NCBI GenBank assembly: GCA_019057475.1
Contig: DXJO01000006.1
Span: 194,327 to 258,326, forward strand
DNA: 64,000 nt
Direction of reading: 5' to 3'
Source: Candidatus Thorarchaeota archaeon
GTDB lineage: Archaea; Asgardarchaeota; Thorarchaeia; Thorarchaeales; Thorarchaeaceae
Shown here: one piece after another, positions 33,271 to 49,789 of the stretch
Numbering within the stretch: position 1 is the stretch's first letter
Layout of the letters: the number at the start of each line of letters is the position of its first letter
Notes under the pieces: model-generated
The model's input: the letters and a program-made list of their open reading frames with translations, nothing else
Told to the model about the DNA's origin: nothing
Databases searched by the model: none
Program-made: the position numbers and the translations under genes

Positions 33271-34422
33271 ATGAAGCAGGTTCAAATCGTTGTTCCTTTC
33301 GAAAAGACCGAGTCCGTACTCAATTTCCTTCTTGATGTTGCTGATGTCAAGAACGTCATGAAATTCAATGCGGACAATGCACATGTCTTGCAGTTCCGGA
33401 TTCCAGACGGCGCTGTCTTGGAAACCGTGGAGAAGCTAAAGAGCCGTGGCATTGGTGTAGAATACGGCTATGTGGATATCCTGGACCTGACTGCCTCACT
33501 TCCAAGGGAGATTGAAGAAGAAAATGACAAAATGCTGCATAGAGAGGCCAGTTTGGCGGTTGAAGAGATCTACGAGAATGTCAAGAAGCAAGCATCACTG
33601 AGTTTTGATTTCATTGCATTTGTGGTCGTTGCAGCGGTCATGGCCGGGTTTGGCTTGATGCAGAACAACATGGTCATTATTGTTGCTTCAATGCTCCTGT
33701 CTCCGCTTATGGGCCCGATGCTAGGAGTGGCGCTTGGACACGTGGTTGGTGACCATTCACTCTTCATCAAAGGGACGAAGAACGAACTGATTGCACTAGC
33801 ATTTTCGTTTGCAATGGGGGGGGTGATGGCTCTCCTGATGCCTATTTTGGACCCTGGCCTACTTGCCCGTGTTGTAGCAGGAACCGGGGAGTTTGCATCG
33901 AATGCTACCATGCTTACGGAAATCACTCGAAGGGGGAATATGTTCTCCGGGCTCGACATCGGAATCGCGATCTTCTCTGGTGCTGCAGTAGCAATATCCG
34001 TGACCAGAGGCGATATGTCAAGTCTAGTTGGTGTTGCCATCTCAGCGGCACTGATGCCGCCAGCTGTCAATGTAGGAATGATGATTATACTTGGCATCGC
34101 CTATGGAGCCCCAATCGCGATAACGATTGGGACGGGTTCCTTGGCACTTCTAGCTATGAACATCATATTGATTGATGTAGCTGCGATTATCACTTTTAAA
34201 ATCAAGAAGCTGACACCCATAGCTAACAAGTCAGCGACCTGGACAGGGGTCATGGAATTCAAGCAAACACGGTCAGCAAGCCTCTATCATACAGCCCCGA
34301 TAGAGTCTGTGAGCAAACCTGAGGTCACAGCTGCGACCTTCACCCCTGCGCCTTCGGAAAAAGAAGACAGCAAAGAAACCGGGAACATCGCGAGTCAAAA
34401 ACCTGCAGAGCCAGAAGGCTAG
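33271..34422 (+). CDS. TIGR00341/DUF389 family membrane protein
   Basis: IVASMLLSPLMGP, LVGVAISAALMPPA. Confidence 0.9.
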   Translation: MKQVQIVVPFEKTESVLNFLLDVADVKNVMKFNADNAHVLQFRIPDGAVLETVEKLKSRGIGVEYGYVDILDLTASLPREIEEENDKMLHREASLAVEEIYENVKKQASLSFDFIAFVVVAAVMAGFGLMQNNMVIIVASMLLSPLMGPMLGVALGHVVGDHSLFIKGTKNELIALAFSFAMGGVMALLMPILDPGLLARVVAGTGEFASNATMLTEITRRGNMFSGLDIGIAIFSGAAVAISVTRGDMSSLVGVAISAALMPPAVNVGMMIILGIAYGAPIAITIGTGSLALLAMNIILIDVAAIITFKIKKLTPIANKSATWTGVMEFKQTRSASLYHTAPIESVSKPEVTAATFTPAPSEKEDSKETGNIASQKPAEPEG

Positions 34423-34679: not shown

Positions 34680-36671
34680 GTGATTCCCACCTGTTATGAT
34701 AGGGCGTGGGATGCAATGATGAATGACAGGTCAAAAGAATCGCAGCTTCTTCTAGGTCTATTGGCTATCCTAATGCTTGTAACCTCATTGGTCCCGTTTG
34801 CACAGCAAATTCCACCTACGAATTTAGACATATCAAAAGGACAGACTGAAGGTTCTAGTCCACAGGACAAATTCATCCCTTCTTATATCACCCATGATCC
34901 CATTACGATTACCTCAAATGCGGATTTTGTATCTCAGGGTTTTTCGGGTAGCGGGACAGCAGAAGAGCCGTTTGTGATTTCAGGTTATAACATAACAACA
35001 ACAGAAACATGTATCTCCATTCAAGACACTGACGCTTACTTTGTCATTCGTGACTGTCTACTCACAGGAGGGTCATCAGGCCATGGTATTAGTGGCATTA
35101 GATTGCACAATGTGACCCACGGGGAGACACGAAATAATACCATCAGTCAAAAGGAATATGGTGTGTACCTCTCTTACTCCTCGAACAACAATGCGGTGGT
35201 GAACAACACCATATCTGATAGCGATTATGGTGTGCTTCTCTTTTATGGCTCACGCAACAACGTGATGGTGAACAACACCATCTTGGGAAACCTAGTCGGT
35301 GTGTACTTGTATAGATCCTTTGACAACACGTTATCATCAAACATCATGGTGAACAATGGAGTCCTCATTTCTGGTAATGCAGTGGAATATTGGCGGCATA
35401 ACATCACTACTGACAACTTGGTGAACGGAAAGCAGTTGGGTTATTTCTGGAACTGCACCGGTGTAGTCATTGACGGGGCCCAATACGGTCAGGTAATCCT
35501 TGCAAATTGTACTGGGATGGCTGTGGAGGACGGTGTGTTTAGCAACGCTTCGGCGGGGTTTCTTCTGGGGTACTCGTCATACTGCAGTTTGACGAATAAT
35601 ACACTATCAGGAAACTACTATGGCGTGCACCATATTTTTTCCTCGAATAACACATTGATGAACAACACAATCTCGGGAAACTATGATGGTGTGTACCTCT
35701 ATTATTCCTCGAACAACACAATAGTGAACAACACCATTTTAGAAAACTCAGATTGTGGCGTGTATTTGTGGGCTGTGTCAGAAGGCAACCTCTTCTACCT
35801 CAATGTAATTGCCTATAACGCTTATGAGAATGCTCATGACAGTGGAACTGACAACCACTGGAACTCCACCGGGATGGGAAACTACTGGTCTGACTATAAT
35901 GGTATTGGTGTGTATTATGTCACAGGGCCTACAGGTCCCATCGACTACCACCCCTTCATGTACCCACCTGATACCGCTCCACCAATAATCGACCACCCTG
36001 CAGACATAAGTTATGAAGAGGGAACAACTGGCAATTTCATCTTTTGGACTCCTAGTGATACCCATCCCTTTCATTATGTGATCTACAGGAATGGTACAGA
36101 GGTGGCATCCGACAGCTGGGATTGGATCTTCATTGGTATAAACATCGACGGACTGAGCGTAGGTGTCTACAACTACACGATTGTAGTGTATGACACTTCG
36201 GGGAACTATGCCAATGATACTGTTTTTGTCACAGTTATTGAAACCATCGAACCAACGATCGACCACCCTGCAGACATGGATTATGAAGAGGGAACAACTG
36301 GTCATAGTATCACCTGGACATCTAGTGATGAACATCCCTCACATTATGTAGTCTACCGGAATGGCACACAGGTGGTTTCTGAGAGTTGGGACGGGAGTTC
36401 CATCACGGTGAATGTTGATGGTCTGGGCGTGGGAGTCTACAACTATACGATTGTGGTGTATGACACCTCGGGGAACTGTGCCAGTGACACTGTTTTTGTC
36501 ATTGTACCACCACAAACGACCACAAGTACAACAACGACCACAACATCCACGACTACCACAACTCTTGATGAACCGGGTACATTTGACTACGCTACAATCA
36601 TAATCATAGTATCAGCTGGGGCTGTGCTAATCATAATTATCATCATAATCCTGAAAAAACGTGGTGATTAA
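34680..36671 (+). CDS. Membrane-anchored NosD/beta-helix surface protein with two Ig-like repeats
   Basis: GSGTAEEPFVI, YGVYL..S.NN repeats, GNYWSDY, two IDHPAD repeats, poly-Thr linker, TM helix plus KKRG. Confidence 0.88.
   Translation: MIPTCYDRAWDAMMNDRSKESQLLLGLLAILMLVTSLVPFAQQIPPTNLDISKGQTEGSSPQDKFIPSYITHDPITITSNADFVSQGFSGSGTAEEPFVISGYNITTTETCISIQDTDAYFVIRDCLLTGGSSGHGISGIRLHNVTHGETRNNTISQKEYGVYLSYSSNNNAVVNNTISDSDYGVLLFYGSRNNVMVNNTILGNLVGVYLYRSFDNTLSSNIMVNNGVLISGNAVEYWRHNITTDNLVNGKQLGYFWNCTGVVIDGAQYGQVILANCTGMAVEDGVFSNASAGFLLGYSSYCSLTNNTLSGNYYGVHHIFSSNNTLMNNTISGNYDGVYLYYSSNNTIVNNTILENSDCGVYLWAVSEGNLFYLNVIAYNAYENAHDSGTDNHWNSTGMGNYWSDYNGIGVYYVTGPTGPIDYHPFMYPPDTAPPIIDHPADISYEEGTTGNFIFWTPSDTHPFHYVIYRNGTEVASDSWDWIFIGINIDGLSVGVYNYTIVVYDTSGNYANDTVFVTVIETIEPTIDHPADMDYEEGTTGHSITWTSSDEHPSHYVVYRNGTQVVSESWDGSSITVNVDGLGVGVYNYTIVVYDTSGNCASDTVFVIVPPQTTTSTTTTTTSTTTTTLDEPGTFDYATIIIIVSAGAVLIIIIIIILKKRGD
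35981..36500 (+). repeat. 270-bp tandem duplication encoding Ig-like domains
   Basis: gaccaccctgcagacat at 35991 and 36261; tgtttttgtc at 36221 and 36491. Confidence 0.9.
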
Positions 36672-36839: not shown

Positions 36840-37124
36840 GTGTCGAAGAAGGCAGAACTGAAGAATAAGCTCTTCAAAGGCTTAACACCGCATGATATTC
36901 TGACGTGGGAAGAGGAGAAGATGCGATACCAAAGAAAACAGGGCAGGAAAGTCACTGACCTTGAGTTTCTAAGACATCTGATGATGTACGCATCTCGACC
37001 TGTGATTTCTAGGAAAGAAGGCGTATCCGGCTACCTGACAGGGCAAGGTCCGATCTATGATAAAACTGGAAGTCTGCTAAGTCGGCATAGATCCCAGAGC
37101 AGCAAGCCATCACAGAAGGCATAA
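36840..37124 (+). CDS. Small basic protein, possible ribbon-helix-helix regulator
   Basis: GTG start after GGAG; helix-GRKVTDLEFLRHL pattern; ends 9 bp before the next gene. Confidence 0.55.
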   Translation: MSKKAELKNKLFKGLTPHDILTWEEEKMRYQRKQGRKVTDLEFLRHLMMYASRPVISRKEGVSGYLTGQGPIYDKTGSLLSRHRSQSSKPSQKA

Positions 37125-37133
37125 ATTCATAGG

Positions 37134-38441
37134 TTGAATGGAACACGCGACACGTTGAAGGGAGCTCTCGCATTGGCTGACCATAACATCCAAGCTATAT
37201 TACTGATGGACAAAGGTGGCATCCCGCTTTTCTTCATGAAGCTGGATCCGAAAGTCCTTGATATTGATCCAATGCTAGTGTCAGGATTCTTCACAGCGAT
37301 TCGGAGTTTTTCTAAGGAGGTAATCGAAAAAGGTGCAACGCAGTTCCAAGTTGACTATGGCGCACGGTTATTCAATATCACCTCCGGGAAGAAAGCAGAT
37401 CTCCTAATCGTCAGTCTTGGAAAACTGCAGGAGCGATTCGGACCTGTTATGACATCGATGCTCAAGGAATTCGAGAGCAAATGGCTCAAGGGCAAGAGCG
37501 TTGAAAAGATAGATTCCATGGACATTCACACTTGTTTTCCCAAGTTCCGTGAGAGTATCATTCACCGACTAACTTCTGGACGGATATCCATCTCATGGAT
37601 TCCATTCCTCGTCAGCTCTGATGGTGAACAGTCACCCGACCTGACAAGCCCTATCTTGTCCCATATCGACGGGGTGCGCACTTTGGAACTCATTCAGGAA
37701 CAGAGTGGGTTTCCAAGAGAAGAGGTTATTGAGGAGATATCCCGTCTTTGGGTGATAGGAGCAGTTGCGTTTCGCAGAATCCTGGACACAAGAGACATTA
37801 TAGCTTCAACGTCCAGACTTGACCCACTGCTGCAGTCCTCATCTGCGGAAAGAGAAGAGCTGAAACGAAATCATCCGGATATCGCAGTTCTGCTTCCTCG
37901 GCTATCTGGTATGTTTGACGGAAGGAGAACTGTGGAGGAAATCCTGAACGCGCTTGAAGGCCAACTCGAAAGGGAAGCTTTGGTTGATGCTATAGAAACC
38001 CTTCTTGACATGCAAGCAGTAGAGCCGCTATCACCTGAGAGGAGACGAATTCTACTCGCAAAGGAAGCAATGGATATAGCCATTAGAGTTGCAGAGAAGG
38101 TGTATTCTTCCGGCGAAATGACCAACGCGCTGCAGTCTTCACTGACCATGGGTTCTGCGCCAGAAGTCGTGGGGGAGATTAGATTGGTGGATAACAAATG
38201 GTCTGTCGAGTACGATTCCAGACTTCTTGAAGGCCTCGACCCCAGACGATTGATGGACCTGTATGCCGACTGGATGAAGCTGCTTGCTCAATTCTCAGCC
38301 GCTCTTGGAAGAAAGAAGTTGAAGCGATTCGTGGAAACCTTGACTCAAGCTTATGAAGTGTACCTATTGAACCGCTATTCCTCTCAAGACCTCAGAGGGT
38401 TTGAAGAGTTCTCATTCTGGCTGGAGCTGATCAACAAATGA
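37134..38441 (+). CDS. Longin-domain plus tandem winged-helix protein (NPRL2-like)
   Basis: ILLMDKGGIPLF...DPMLVSGFFTAIRSFSKEV longin-type N-terminus; IDGVRTL and FDGRRTVEEI winged-helix repeats. Confidence 0.75.
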   Translation: MNGTRDTLKGALALADHNIQAILLMDKGGIPLFFMKLDPKVLDIDPMLVSGFFTAIRSFSKEVIEKGATQFQVDYGARLFNITSGKKADLLIVSLGKLQERFGPVMTSMLKEFESKWLKGKSVEKIDSMDIHTCFPKFRESIIHRLTSGRISISWIPFLVSSDGEQSPDLTSPILSHIDGVRTLELIQEQSGFPREEVIEEISRLWVIGAVAFRRILDTRDIIASTSRLDPLLQSSSAEREELKRNHPDIAVLLPRLSGMFDGRRTVEEILNALEGQLEREALVDAIETLLDMQAVEPLSPERRRILLAKEAMDIAIRVAEKVYSSGEMTNALQSSLTMGSAPEVVGEIRLVDNKWSVEYDSRLLEGLDPRRLMDLYADWMKLLAQFSAALGRKKLKRFVETLTQAYEVYLLNRYSSQDLRGFEEFSFWLELINK

Positions 38442-38767
38442 ATCAAAATGAAACCGGTCTTCAAGAGATGGTCAGTATACTTGGTAGACGAGGGCAAACC
38501 ATCTACGGCAGACAAAGCATTGTGGAAGCCTGTACCAAAGCAGGTGTCATACTCATCGACACTCCTGATGACGAGCGATACGATGAGAATAGTCGAAAAT
38601 CGTTGGAGCGCTTCTTGCTAGAATACTCAAAGCTGGGTCCAGCTGCCAGATTGACGCTATTGATTCTCTCAAAACAATATGAAGCCACGTTGCCTGAGGA
38701 ACTTGCTCGCAAGAAGAAGAGCTTGGTTGACATTGTGAGCCTGCTCTCAGACTTTATGAACCAGTGA
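38438..38767 (+). CDS. Hypothetical helical protein, translationally coupled to the upstream gene
   Basis: ATGA overlap with 37134..38441. Confidence 0.75.
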   Translation: MNQNETGLQEMVSILGRRGQTIYGRQSIVEACTKAGVILIDTPDDERYDENSRKSLERFLLEYSKLGPAARLTLLILSKQYEATLPEELARKKKSLVDIVSLLSDFMNQ

Positions 38768-38809
38768 GTTGTCCGTAACATTGAACTAGGTGTAGGACGC
38801 TAGGAAGGC

Positions 38810-39334
38810 TTGGTATTCGCCATGAGTCCATCATACTTGTTTAAAATCGTTACAGTAGGCGGAGCGGCCGTGGGAAAGACCTCGATAATTCTGCGTTATA
38901 CAACGGGGAAGTTTCGCGAATACTATTCCCCTACGCTGGGAGCAGATTTCGCCATTAAGACAATGGAGTTAAATGGCAACAGGGTCAAGCTTCAAATTTG
39001 GGATTTGGGGTCCCAAGATTTCCTAGGAGGCGTTCGAGCGGGATTCTATCCAGGGTCAAAAGGCGTGCTCTTTATGTACGATGTTACTTCCAGAGAGAGC
39101 TTTGAGGAATTGACCAAGTGGAAAAAGGAAGTTGACTCACACCTCAAGGGATACGAACGTCTTATCGTGGCCAATAAGACAGATCTCAAGGATGAGCGAG
39201 TTGTGTCAAAAGCAGAAGGCAAGAAGATTGCAGAACGTTTCGGTGGAGCCTATCTCGAAGCCTCAGTGAAGCTAAACGAAAACGTGGACGACAGCTTCAG
39301 CGAAATGGCTAAGATGGTCCTCGATGCGCGATAA
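38810..39334 (+). CDS. Rab-like small GTPase (Asgard type)
   Basis: G1 GGAAVGKTS, PTLGADF, KLQIWDLGSQ, ANKTD, EASVK; no C-terminal Cys motif. Likely start ATG 38822. Confidence 0.93.
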   Translation: MVFAMSPSYLFKIVTVGGAAVGKTSIILRYTTGKFREYYSPTLGADFAIKTMELNGNRVKLQIWDLGSQDFLGGVRAGFYPGSKGVLFMYDVTSRESFEELTKWKKEVDSHLKGYERLIVANKTDLKDERVVSKAEGKKIAERFGGAYLEASVKLNENVDDSFSEMAKMVLDAR

Positions 39335-39559: not shown

Positions 39560-40351
39560 GTGGTATACTATCCTAACAGGCATGTGGAATATTCTTGTCT
39601 TCTAGGTGTACTTGGAGGACTGCCGTCGTTGACAAGAACAGATCCAGAAGATCTTGACAAGCTGTTCAAGGCCCTTGGTCACATTACTAGAAGACGCATA
39701 TTGCGGCTTTTGGCACAAACCCCAAGATACCCATATGAGCTAAGCAAGCTTCTGGAGCTAAACAGACGAGTGGTGCTGAAGCACTTAGACGCACTGCAGG
39801 ACGCAGCTCTCGTAGAACGCGAAGCGGGTGACAGTGATCTAGGTCCGGACAGGATATATTACCGCCTAAAAGCAAGTTTCGGTCTGTCAACTACAATATC
39901 GCCAAACGCATTCCTGATGCGATTCACCCAAAGGCAGCATCCTGCCGCACTTGCTTCACATCCAAGCTTTGTCATACGCGACACAGATTCTGATGTGAAG
40001 GCTGTACGTAGACTCCTTGGGGAGTTAGACAAGACGCACAAGCAACTGAGCGCTATTGACGAGGAGAGAATGCGCCTTGCGTCCATTCGTGCGGAGATAA
40101 TTCGACGCATTGAAGGGGTAATGAACGAGTGTAAGTGGGATCGAGAGAGCTGTCAGCGTGTGAGGGCGCTCATTAACCCAGTTCGCATGAGCGTTCCTGT
40201 TGAAACGACAACAGGAAAGGATCCGTGGTCAGAGTCGATTCGTGAGGCGCTAAACCTGTTTGAGAAGATGTTCAGTCTGCCAAGAAAACCGAGGGACCTA
40301 GAGAAGAAGGATGACCTGACTGAGAAGGATGTACCAATAGAATTCGAGTGA
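39560..40351 (+). CDS. ArsR-type winged-helix transcription regulator with coiled coil
   Basis: FKALGHITRRRILRLL...YELSKLL...VLKHLDAL..AALV. Probable start TTG at 39629. Confidence 0.88.
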   Translation: MVYYPNRHVEYSCLLGVLGGLPSLTRTDPEDLDKLFKALGHITRRRILRLLAQTPRYPYELSKLLELNRRVVLKHLDALQDAALVEREAGDSDLGPDRIYYRLKASFGLSTTISPNAFLMRFTQRQHPAALASHPSFVIRDTDSDVKAVRRLLGELDKTHKQLSAIDEERMRLASIRAEIIRRIEGVMNECKWDRESCQRVRALINPVRMSVPVETTTGKDPWSESIREALNLFEKMFSLPRKPRDLEKKDDLTEKDVPIEFE

Positions 40352-47708: not shown

Positions 47709-49001
47709 CTAGACTACTGTGTCCATTAGGTACGAGCTCCAGATTGCGCGACAGCGTTTCCTTATGCCTGCTAGTAGGTACTTGGCGCTGAGCGGTCCGG
47801 CATCGTTTGATAGCTGGTCCGCCACCGCGAGAATCAGGAACTCCACTGCGTCGCATATGTTATCCAAATCTTCTGGCGTCATGGTTTCATCGAGTTGACA
47901 TCTAACAGCCATGTTGTCTTGGAGCTTAATCCTTCCAACCCATGGATGCATCTCAATCCCTCTGTCTTGGCCTGTGAAGAAGTAGTTCGTAGCATCCGAG
48001 GAACTTCTCACCTTAACACATGCTCGAACGAGTGCAGAGAGGACACACTCGTTGGCAAGAAGTAGTCGCCTCTCAATTGATGCTCTCTGTAAGTAGCCTT
48101 TGTTAACCAAGTTGCCAAGTTCATAGAGTACAGAACTTGTTGTCCAAAGATTCAGCTTCTCGAAAACAGATACTAGTGGAGTGCGGCCATCAAGGGTGGT
48201 TATTATTCTCAAGACCTGCAGAGAGTTTCTCAGGGGGTTCTCGCGACTTAGCAGAATGCCTGACGACTTCTCTGAGGTCAAAAGGATATCATCATCTGAT
48301 GGCACATAGCTCAGATGAATGGCATTATTCCAACGAGCCATAGATACTAGATCCTCTACCTCTCGCATTGGAAGATCTTGCGCTTCAGCTATCTCTGACA
48401 ATGATTGGCCGCTCGTTGCTGAATGCAAGAACTTTGTTATCTTGAAAGCCATGCTGGGCAACTCGTAGTGTCCAGAGGTGTCATATCTGCGCGCATTCTT
48501 TAGAATGATCGAGCGTTCTGTCAGTCTATCTCCCAGGAATGTTCTCCTCACGAATTGGTCAAAGTCCTTGAATAGATGGCTTTCGATTCCATCATCGTGT
48601 TTCAGACATTGGAAGCTGTCTTCAAATTCCATCACGACACGTCTAAGCTTGCTCCGCCCTTCATTGGTTTCTCTCGAAACTGCAAGAACTCCTGTTGTCC
48701 AGTCCCCAACCTCTACTAAGAGTGTGGAGCTAGACCCAAATTCTGTCTTCCACTGGGTCTGCTCTGAACCCGTAAGCTCGCCCATGAAACTCGTCATAGC
48801 CGATACAAAACCTGCGAGAATCTGGGGGTCCTGTTCCCCCGAAACAAACTCATGCGAATAGGGAGCAATCCCCGTGAGCTTGTTGAGGATGAAGAGTACC
48901 TTCTCGTTGGATATCTCCGAGTAATCAGATGTCGTTGGCTCAACTGCGTCGTCTAATTGCGGACGCGATGAAGCACTGGGTTGTTCTGAGCCTTCAGTCA
49001 C
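47709..49001 (-). CDS. Longin-domain plus tandem winged-helix protein (NPRL3-like), paralog of 37134..38441
   Basis: LFILNKLTGI...DPQILAGFVSAMTSFMGEL; GQSLSEIAEAQDLPMREV; LDGRTPL; SIERRLLLANE versus SPERRRILLAKE. Confidence 0.72.
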   Translation of the reverse strand: MTEGSEQPSASSRPQLDDAVEPTTSDYSEISNEKVLFILNKLTGIAPYSHEFVSGEQDPQILAGFVSAMTSFMGELTGSEQTQWKTEFGSSSTLLVEVGDWTTGVLAVSRETNEGRSKLRRVVMEFEDSFQCLKHDDGIESHLFKDFDQFVRRTFLGDRLTERSIILKNARRYDTSGHYELPSMAFKITKFLHSATSGQSLSEIAEAQDLPMREVEDLVSMARWNNAIHLSYVPSDDDILLTSEKSSGILLSRENPLRNSLQVLRIITTLDGRTPLVSVFEKLNLWTTSSVLYELGNLVNKGYLQRASIERRLLLANECVLSALVRACVKVRSSSDATNYFFTGQDRGIEMHPWVGRIKLQDNMAVRCQLDETMTPEDLDNICDAVEFLILAVADQLSNDAGPLSAKYLLAGIRKRCRAIWSSYLMDTVV

Positions 49002-49177: not shown

Positions 49178-49789
49178 AGGAACCACCTACAAGCGATTAT
49201 TATGGGCACAGAAATCCTAGCTACAACGAGCCTTGACCCCAAACTGGCTTCTTTGATTGGCTTAAACATTGAGTCGGTGGAGAGAGCGCAGAACCTAATT
49301 CAGAAAGTACAAGCCACACGGGGGTTGCTTACAGTCCCGCTCACCGAGAAGTCATTAAGAAACGCTCTCGAGGAATCAGTGGGGGCTTTGAAAGCAACCT
49401 ATGACGACCTTGAGATTAAGGTCAATTACAGGCTTCGGCGTTCAAAGGTCAAGGCTGACCAGTACCTTGACAACCTACTGGCGAACCTACTTGAAAACGC
49501 AACCATTCACAACAATAGGAGCCCCAGAAGAGTTTGGGTTACCCTGCGAGAATCTAAAGGTGGCTACGAAATCTCGATCGCAGACAACGGACCTGGAATC
49601 TCGAATGAAAAGAAGGAGAATTTGTTTGACCCAGAGAGACGCTTCGGTGGTGTTGGAATCCATCAGGCGTTACGCATCGCACAGAAATATGGCGGATACA
49701 TAAGCGTGGAAGATAGAATTGTAAATGACTCAAGCCAAGGCGCCAAATTTCTGGTCTGGTTACTAAAGTCAGATGCCTCAGGCTCATGA
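49178..49789 (+). pseudogene. 5'-truncated histidine kinase (partial DHp plus HATPase)
   Basis: Homology starts at RNHLQAIIMG, just after the missing phospho-His; in-frame TAG at 49169-49171; NLLENA, DNGPGI, GGVGI. Confidence 0.75.

Follow-up and report, generated by a model that had tools for sequence, protein, structure and literature searches.

Longin and roadblock domains are paired with small GTPases in several described systems, among them MglA-MglB, TRAPP and Mon1-Ccz1. The GATOR1 subunits NPRL2 and NPRL3 (Npr2 and Npr3 in yeast; GTPase-activating protein (GAP) for RagA/Gtr1) carry a longin followed by two winged helices. Here we describe a gene cassette with the same order of domains, located in a 64,000-nucleotide stretch of DNA of a Candidatus Thorarchaeota archaeon (assembly GCA_019057475.1, contig DXJO01000006.1, positions 194,327 to 258,326, forward strand), which is referred to as the window. 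The cassette consists of three genes, coding for an NPRL2-like large protein, a small helical protein here named the adaptor, and a Rab-like small GTPase.

An Asgard family with a longin and an NPRL2-type C-terminal domain has been catalogued by Liu et al., in most Thor and a few Loki metagenome-assembled genomes (bioRxiv 10.1101/2020.10.19.343400). The large protein very likely belongs to this family, with which it shares the longin and the NPRL2-type winged helices; its relatives occur in Thor genomes, Ca. Harpocratesius and Ca. Lokiarchaeum ossiferum. What has been catalogued is the protein family. The accessible parts of that account describe no operon, adaptor, GTPase partner or link to ODP proteins, and neither the cassette nor the adaptor nor its link to ODP was the subject of any paper returned by an incomplete literature search.

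In comparison with GATOR1, the large protein lacks the GP motif and an evident arginine finger but has an extra C-terminal helical domain. Moreover, the cassette includes a small adaptor, its partner is Rab-like and not a Rag heterodimer, and no paired NPRL3-like gene is present in the operon. ODP proteins are oxygen/iron sensors coupled to chemoreceptors or kinases, such as TDE2498 of Treponema denticola (PMC7666581, PMC7319448). The cassette adaptor is homologous to the small gene following ODP and sister operons of Asgard archaea carry a full ODP, whereas the cassette has none. Thor-Rab (PDB 7EZB) is slow in its intrinsic GTP hydrolysis and is not lipid-anchored (PMC10933270). The cassette GTPase resembles it and Rab8/Rab10 in the Rab-like G domain including KLQIW (RabF2) and, like Thor-Rab, has no lipid tail, but differs from them in a G3 motif DxGSQ, a non-Gly residue at P-loop position 12 and a dedicated operon. 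With MglA-MglB, TRAPP and Mon1-Ccz1 the cassette shares a small GTPase set beside a roadblock/longin platform, and its longin fold is closest to Trs23/synbindin. Unlike MglA-MglB and the longin exchange factors, however, the large protein is multi-domain, with winged helices and an adaptor, and the GTPase is Rab-like, not MglA-like.

Organization of the cassette

Four co-oriented open reading frames (ORFs) were found on the plus strand at 36840-37124, 37134-38441, 38438-38767 and 38810/38822-39334. A first-pass annotation of the window had described them as four tightly packed genes. The ORFs themselves were recovered, but the first of them (start codon GTG, 94 aa) lies outside the conserved unit, and the 9-bp gap behind it had to be revised. 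The frame of the large protein is open for 435 aa at most; its homologues start at the position of a TTG at 37173, so that the protein probably comprises 422 aa and the first intergenic gap 48 bp instead of 9. The adaptor gene overlaps the large gene by 4 bp (ATGA), and the gap between adaptor and GTPase gene is 42 or 54 bp, depending on the start codon at 38810 or 38822. The features of the cassette are as follows:

37173..38441, plus strand: NPRL2-like protein, probably 422 aa, with longin, two winged helices and C-terminal helical domain (homologue starts, AlphaFold, Foldseek, profile match)
37185..37577, plus strand: longin domain, residues 5-135 (VIA, DSSP, alignment)
37596..38027, plus strand: two tandem winged-helix units, residues ~142-285 (hmmsearch alignment to 6CES_N, weak Pfam matches)
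38034..38438, plus strand: C-terminal helical domain, residues 288-422 (model, alignments, fusion in orthologues)
38438..38767, plus strand: 109-aa helical adaptor of the ODP-partner family, translationally coupled (fusion, ODP neighbourhood, homology)
38822..39334, plus strand: Rab-like small GTPase, 170 aa (Pfam Ras, PDB matches, alignment)
38999..39016, plus strand: aberrant G3/switch-II motif WDLGSQ with Ser at the position of Ras G60 (alignment of cassette GTPases)

A promoter and terminator scan stayed at chance level; its model is bacterial and the host is an archaeon.

Relationship of the large protein to NPRL2

The AlphaFold model of the large protein was built with 81 sequences and reached a pLDDT of 81. 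It is composed of the longin (5-135), two winged helices (~142-201 and 209-285) and the helical domain (288-421). In a Foldseek search against the PDB, a check proposed by the first-pass annotation, the top 13 matches were all NPRL2, NPRL3, Npr2 or Npr3 chains of GATOR1/SEA (E 9e-7 to 7e-4). These alignments covered approximately 350-500 columns with TM-scores of 0.22-0.26, and the low scores mean that the series of domains is common to both but the overall arrangement is not.

Single-sequence searches against PDB and Pfam gave weak or chance matches at most. A profile of close homologues matched human NPRL2 with E=1.3e-6, and a broader profile matched residues 123-328 of human NPRL2 with E=2.7e-10 and yeast Npr2 with 1.6e-5, the next match (0.0024) being unrelated. 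According to the hmmsearch alignment to 6CES_N the winged-helix pair is homologous to NPRL2 residues ~180-328. Weak Pfam matches were found among 81 members to HTH_NPRL3 (29 members) and NPR2 (7 members). The isolated longin was nearest to those of TRAPP Trs23/synbindin, Sec22b and Vamp7 (VIA Z 11.4-12.4).

The first-pass annotation had predicted a longin and two winged helices, and had likened to NPRL2 the segment WIPFLV...PDLTSPILSHIDGVRTL...EVIEEISRLWVIGAV, which is present with its W at 37596. The profile matches show this likeness to be real and far above chance; the longin fold is borne out by the model and by VIA Z of 11-12, and the NPRL2 type of the tandem winged helices by Foldseek and profile match.

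The C-terminal helical domain is absent from NPRL2 and ends in a conserved DLRGFEEFSFWLE helix. No match below E=0.039 was found for it among PDB sequences. We considered whether this domain and the adaptor repeat a single fold and rejected the idea (hhalign probability 0.6%).

The longin-winged-helix profile matched the host genome 18 times, and in about 8 cases the match spanned the winged helices; no second longin gene was found within the cassette. Two distant paralogues have the same four-part layout. One is located in the window (47709-49001, minus strand), the other (L185:5586-6836) directly 5' of a PAS histidine kinase gene.

The adaptor and its genomic association with ODP

The adaptor is predicted to fold into a small bundle of helices, with one further helix set apart at the C-terminus. 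In the 109-aa protein the C-terminus combines a basic patch with an amphipathic helix (tail moment 0.55). There was no Pfam match and no clear PDB match (best Z 6.2 with scattered matches to H-NOX N-terminal regions; Foldseek E>2). An Atlas structure search showed a resemblance to an ODP-fused domain (TM 0.57), a lead later confirmed by synteny and hhalign. The gene following ODP is homologous to the adaptor in Ca. Scalindua (hhalign 95%) and in a Nitrospinae genome (85%), and the adaptor is therefore an ODP-partner domain of wide occurrence. The Scalindua pair (L180:5001-6070) is followed by a 1721-aa hybrid sensor kinase, and the Nitrospinae pair (L182:5001-6034) is located next to flagellar and hydrogenase genes.

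A phylum-wide search of 301 Asgard genomes recovered the adaptor from 70, of which 15 belong to families other than that of the host; within the host family, adaptor-marked operons were found in 54 of 76 genomes. Besides the GTPase-type cassette there is another Asgard operon type, with the gene order large protein, ODP, adaptor or ODP, adaptor, large protein. Its ODP belongs to PF19583 (E ~1e-52) and carries the invariant metal ligands HQDPD, H, D and H, numbered after secondary papers. Members of this ODP clade occurred in 22 of the 301 genomes, representing seven families, and adjoined the adaptor in all 22. The hosts include Ca. Harpocratesius repetitus and Ca. Lokiarchaeum ossiferum. Such operons were also present on contigs labelled Hodarchaeales and Kariarchaeaceae, the latter without the large gene. 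A contig labelled Odinarchaeota (L178:4668-5654) codes for a 328-aa protein that begins with the adaptor domain and shows a weak match of longin type; its gene comes directly after ODP, among PAS/receiver genes. No ODP of this clade was found in the host genome (96% complete) or in the cassette. Four ODP-family matches in the host genome were rejected as longer flavodiiron-like or other metallo-beta-lactamase proteins (26% identity).

The 72 distinct non-ODP loci fall into 43 with the adaptor fused to the large protein and 29 with both split. Fused proteins are ~530 aa in size with the adaptor domain at the C-terminal end. The C-terminal helix of the adaptor is amphipathic in split forms and missing in fused ones. 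A search for longer adaptor-bearing proteins returned none but missed the known fusions too and was therefore uninformative. Between the operon types residues of the adaptor shift, from RGLG to RGQT and from NLPAKM to SPAAKL. The tails of ODP-type adaptors (L079-L098) are strongly basic and often amphipathic, with a net charge of +4 to +10 in most, and resemble membrane-targeting sequences; those of GTPase-type split adaptors are amphipathic and neutral.

A Rab-like GTPase with an altered G3 motif

The first-pass annotation had considered the partner Rab-like rather than Rag-like, and this assignment holds. The GTPase matched Pfam Ras (3e-46) and its best PDB matches were Rab10/Rab8A (1e-39) and Thor-Rab (1e-36), while no match to Gtr1/RagA and no roadblock domain were found. 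It is a stand-alone G domain of 170 aa which ends at the last helix, with neither a C-terminal extension nor a prenylation cysteine. The motifs G1 (GGAAVGKT), G2 (PT), G4 (NKTD) and G5 (SVK) are present, as are the RabF-like segments LGADF, KLQIW, FYPGS and YDVT.

The canonical G3 motif DxxG is replaced by D(L/M)GSQ in 67 of 68 cassette GTPases, with the register set by alignment to Rab10. In the host GTPase it reads DLGSQ, with the catalytic Gln kept; most other GTPases of the host genome have D(L/I/V)AGQ. The residue at the position of Ras G12 is not a Gly in cassette GTPases. Together with the Ser at the position of Ras G60 this suggests a modified switch.

Linkage, co-divergence and descent of the cassette

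Synteny across Thorarchaeia, another check proposed by the first-pass annotation, showed the linkage to be kept: of 68 assessable loci, 66 have the GTPase gene downstream of the adaptor, and in 61 the distance is within 250 bp. The GTPase clade was present in 10 cassette-bearing genera and not found in six without the cassette. Since the genomes with or without cassette and GTPase are kin, this co-occurrence is a pattern and not a test. In one lineage (L005:7720-8982, L011, L012, L013) a gene for a secreted serine hydrolase of the beta-lactamase family (PF00144) is located between adaptor and GTPase.

For the large protein a quick maximum likelihood tree of 91 proteins was calculated, leaving out half of the fused rows and rooted on two distant paralogues. 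The 47 GTPase-type proteins formed one clade (approximate likelihood ratio test, SH-aLRT, 100) nested among the ODP-type, as sister to the ODP-type proteins of Thorarchaeia (SH-aLRT 85). The fused cassettes grouped as a single clade in the tree of the large protein (SH-aLRT 100) as well as in that of the GTPase (99), and the subclades corresponded between the two. A split and a fused cassette coexist in many genomes, and either one has a GTPase of its own. In addition, the segment LGADF is changed to LG(T/V)GF in 39 of 39 fused-type GTPases. The dedicated, self-contained GTPase module of the first-pass annotation is therefore supported by synteny, linkage and concordant trees as a co-inherited module of three genes, but not of four.

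The GTPase-type cassette is limited to Thorarchaeia and represents one clade. From sequence comparison it appears to descend from the longin-ODP-adaptor operon found in seven Asgard families. In the simplest scenario the ODP operon would have been duplicated in Thorarchaeia and one copy would have lost ODP. This copy may then have recruited a GTPase with modified switch II. A second copy of the cassette would have arisen later, the genes of one of the two would have fused, and the cassette would have been relocated as a whole.

Two loci show unusual arrangements. L096:6053-8573 carries a fused large gene, then a 265-aa partial duplicate that comprises the C-terminal domain and the adaptor, and then the GTPase, with another small GTPase gene just upstream. 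At L095:3756-10274 both operon types occur in one genome: the ODP-type is 2 kb away from the GTPase-type cassette, whose large gene is broken into 167 and 282 codons.

Putative mode of action

Longin GAPs can be recognized by a GP motif that precedes strand 2 and by an adjacent arginine finger (PMC12290439). The GP motif was absent from the large protein; all aligned members have G-x-P, the host protein G-I-P. The connection between beta4 and beta5 is a 3-residue turn without Arg (DSSP of the model, alignment), and R65, which lies in the beta3-beta4 hairpin, is the only conserved Arg of the longin; it is kept in 90% of the GTPase-type and 47% of the ODP-type proteins. The arginine finger of NPRL2 we take to be R78 in the beta4-beta5 loop. 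The profile match to NPRL2 (123-328) leaves R78 outside its span, and the longins were compared at the level of the fold; a review places the NPRL2 arginine in 'a loop of the longin domain'. The missing GP motif and the lack of an evident arginine finger make a docking/exchange platform likelier than a GATOR1-like GAP. Longin dimers form the GTPase-binding face in C9orf72-SMCR8, GATOR1 and Mon1-Ccz1 (PMC8213707, PMC8534245).

With moderate confidence, we infer from context, phylogeny and fold that the NPRL2-like protein and the adaptor form one unit that serves the Rab-like GTPase as a dedicated partner, the longin being a docking/exchange platform and not an arginine-finger GAP. The adaptor would dock on the C-terminal helical domain of the large protein. 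The longin, probably as a dimer, would bind the anchor-less GTPase and control its nucleotide state as a docking/exchange factor. In split versions the amphipathic tail of the adaptor may hold the unit at the membrane and thereby attach the GTPase, which has no anchor of its own. A complex prediction with the large protein, a second longin copy, the adaptor and the GTPase, in which the GTPase was scored, gave 0.15 against a mark of 0.32; it had no controls and weighs neither way.

Several observations argue against this explanation. Residues specific for the GTPase-type are few on the longin helix and more frequent in the C-terminal domain (R359-Q373, R401, R408), so the GTPase contact could lie outside the longin. 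The fused forms are without the amphipathic tail, and a membrane role is therefore not universal. The host genome carries a second GTPase of the cassette clade with no cassette (L184:5265-5798; G000:C29:73285), which has a canonical DLAGQ and whose gene immediately precedes that of a PAS histidine kinase. In two closed or well-assembled relatives (L017, L018) the GTPase is kept but the other two genes are deleted: stumps of the large gene of 52-56 codons (L017:6001-6159; L018:6013-6183) directly precede the intact GTPase gene and the adaptor is gone, in one case in a closed genome (CP070761). The trees were quick searches with SH-aLRT support only, rooted on distant paralogues and with long branches meeting near the base. 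Finally, the literature search turned up no experimental work on any member.

The position of the type-specific residues would also fit a different arrangement, in which the GTPase replaces ODP as the input on the adaptor or the C-terminal domain, the winged helices act as output on DNA or another protein, and the large protein is an effector. The adaptor is a constant neighbour of ODP in bacteria and Asgard archaea, its residues shift between the two operon types as described above, and no cassette GTPase was found in ODP-type operons. Weak profile matches to winged helices of MarR, Lrp and TrmB (E 0.02-0.04) point in the same direction, but those to NPRL2 are better than to such DNA-binding regulators by eight orders of magnitude. 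The winged helices of NPRL2 are not known to bind DNA, and longin domains are established GTPase platforms. We regard an effector role as rather unlikely.

An archaeal GATOR1-like GAP, with a longin arginine finger acting on the Rab-like GTPase, seems improbable to us. The homology to NPRL2 is real, the GTPase keeps its catalytic Gln and R65 shows the preference for the GTPase-type mentioned above; C9orf72-SMCR8, moreover, has weak Rab GAP activity (PMC8213707). Against these stand G-x-P in place of the GP motif and a longin structurally nearer to those of TRAPP, SNARE and adaptin than to that of NPRL2. The short turn between beta4 and beta5 has no Arg where R78 is presumed to lie in NPRL2, and the non-Gly residue at the Ras G12 position and the Ser at G60 would disfavour a Ras-type finger. 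Equally little credence can be given to linkage without partnership, in which the GTPase gene came to lie after a degenerate sensor operon and shares no more than its transcription. It would account for the orphan GTPases of the clade (L017, L018, L184) and for the unrelated genes between adaptor and GTPase (L003, L005, L011-L013), but the linkage survived many relocations, a duplication and a fusion, the trees are concordant, the interswitch of the GTPase changed together with the fusion (39 of 39), and the large protein is under strong constraint even without ODP.

A wider and more tentative picture is possible, although we consider it doubtful. A bacterial-type ODP-partner adaptor would have become wired via an NPRL2 homologue to a Rab-like GTPase, and the ODP- and GTPase-type operons would each represent one half of a common pathway layout that runs from sensor through adaptor and longin platform to small GTPase. 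The Thorarchaeia trio would be a physically interacting, non-GAP, ancestor-like form of longin regulation whose GTPase has a rebuilt switch II.

Asgard genomes contain dozens of small GTPases and longin proteins, almost none with a known partner. The proteins of the cassette are small, probably soluble and matched to one another; fused, split and deleted versions occur in nature and can serve as controls, so that the role of NPRL2-like proteins before GATOR1 becomes directly testable. Through its apparent descent from an oxygen/iron-sensor operon, the cassette also connects a sensing component of bacterial type with GTPase components like those of eukaryotes. Its significance is limited in that the family has been catalogued, Thorarchaeia are not the lineage closest to eukaryotes and the activity is a predicted one.

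Insertion site and neighbouring genes

The flanks of the cassette are formed by the following genes:

36840..37124, plus strand: conserved 94-aa Thorarchaeia protein, flanking host gene outside the cassette (synteny in relatives)
39560..40351, plus strand: ArsR-type regulator, 3' flank of the insertion site (Pfam HTH_5 5.9e-8; directly after the 94-aa gene in most relatives)

The 94-aa gene is present as a single copy in 62 of the 76 family genomes, with 65-80% protein identity across the family; a query with the protein gave no match in other Asgard families. In nearly all loci outside the host genus the gene is flanked by a DUF389 gene and the ArsR gene, and nothing resembling the cassette is close by. 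A cassette between the 94-aa gene and ArsR was found in the host genus and one other only (L016, L018), and at its other genomic sites the neighbours of the cassette differ. As the 94-aa gene normally occurs without the cassette and elsewhere has other neighbours around the cassette, the latter was inserted as a three-gene block, and the 94-aa gene is part of a conserved Thorarchaeia neighbourhood DUF389 - 94-aa - ArsR. The first-pass annotation had proposed a ribbon-helix-helix (RHH) regulator for this gene. This found no firm support: there was no match in Pfam or NCBIfam, just an ESM feature match (0.90, rank 29) to a cluster of which 11% of the members carry RHH_1.

In the window the neighbourhood is located at 33271-34422, 36840-37124 and 39560-40351, and the order DUF389 - 94-aa - ArsR (- receiver/TPR) was also seen in L147-L172. 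A secreted NosD/beta-helix gene (34680-36671, plus strand) lies between the DUF389 and 94-aa genes, a slot which is empty or otherwise filled in relatives. Further downstream, at 49202-49789 (plus strand), the window carries a stand-alone histidine-kinase ATPase fragment in which no HisKA domain was detected.

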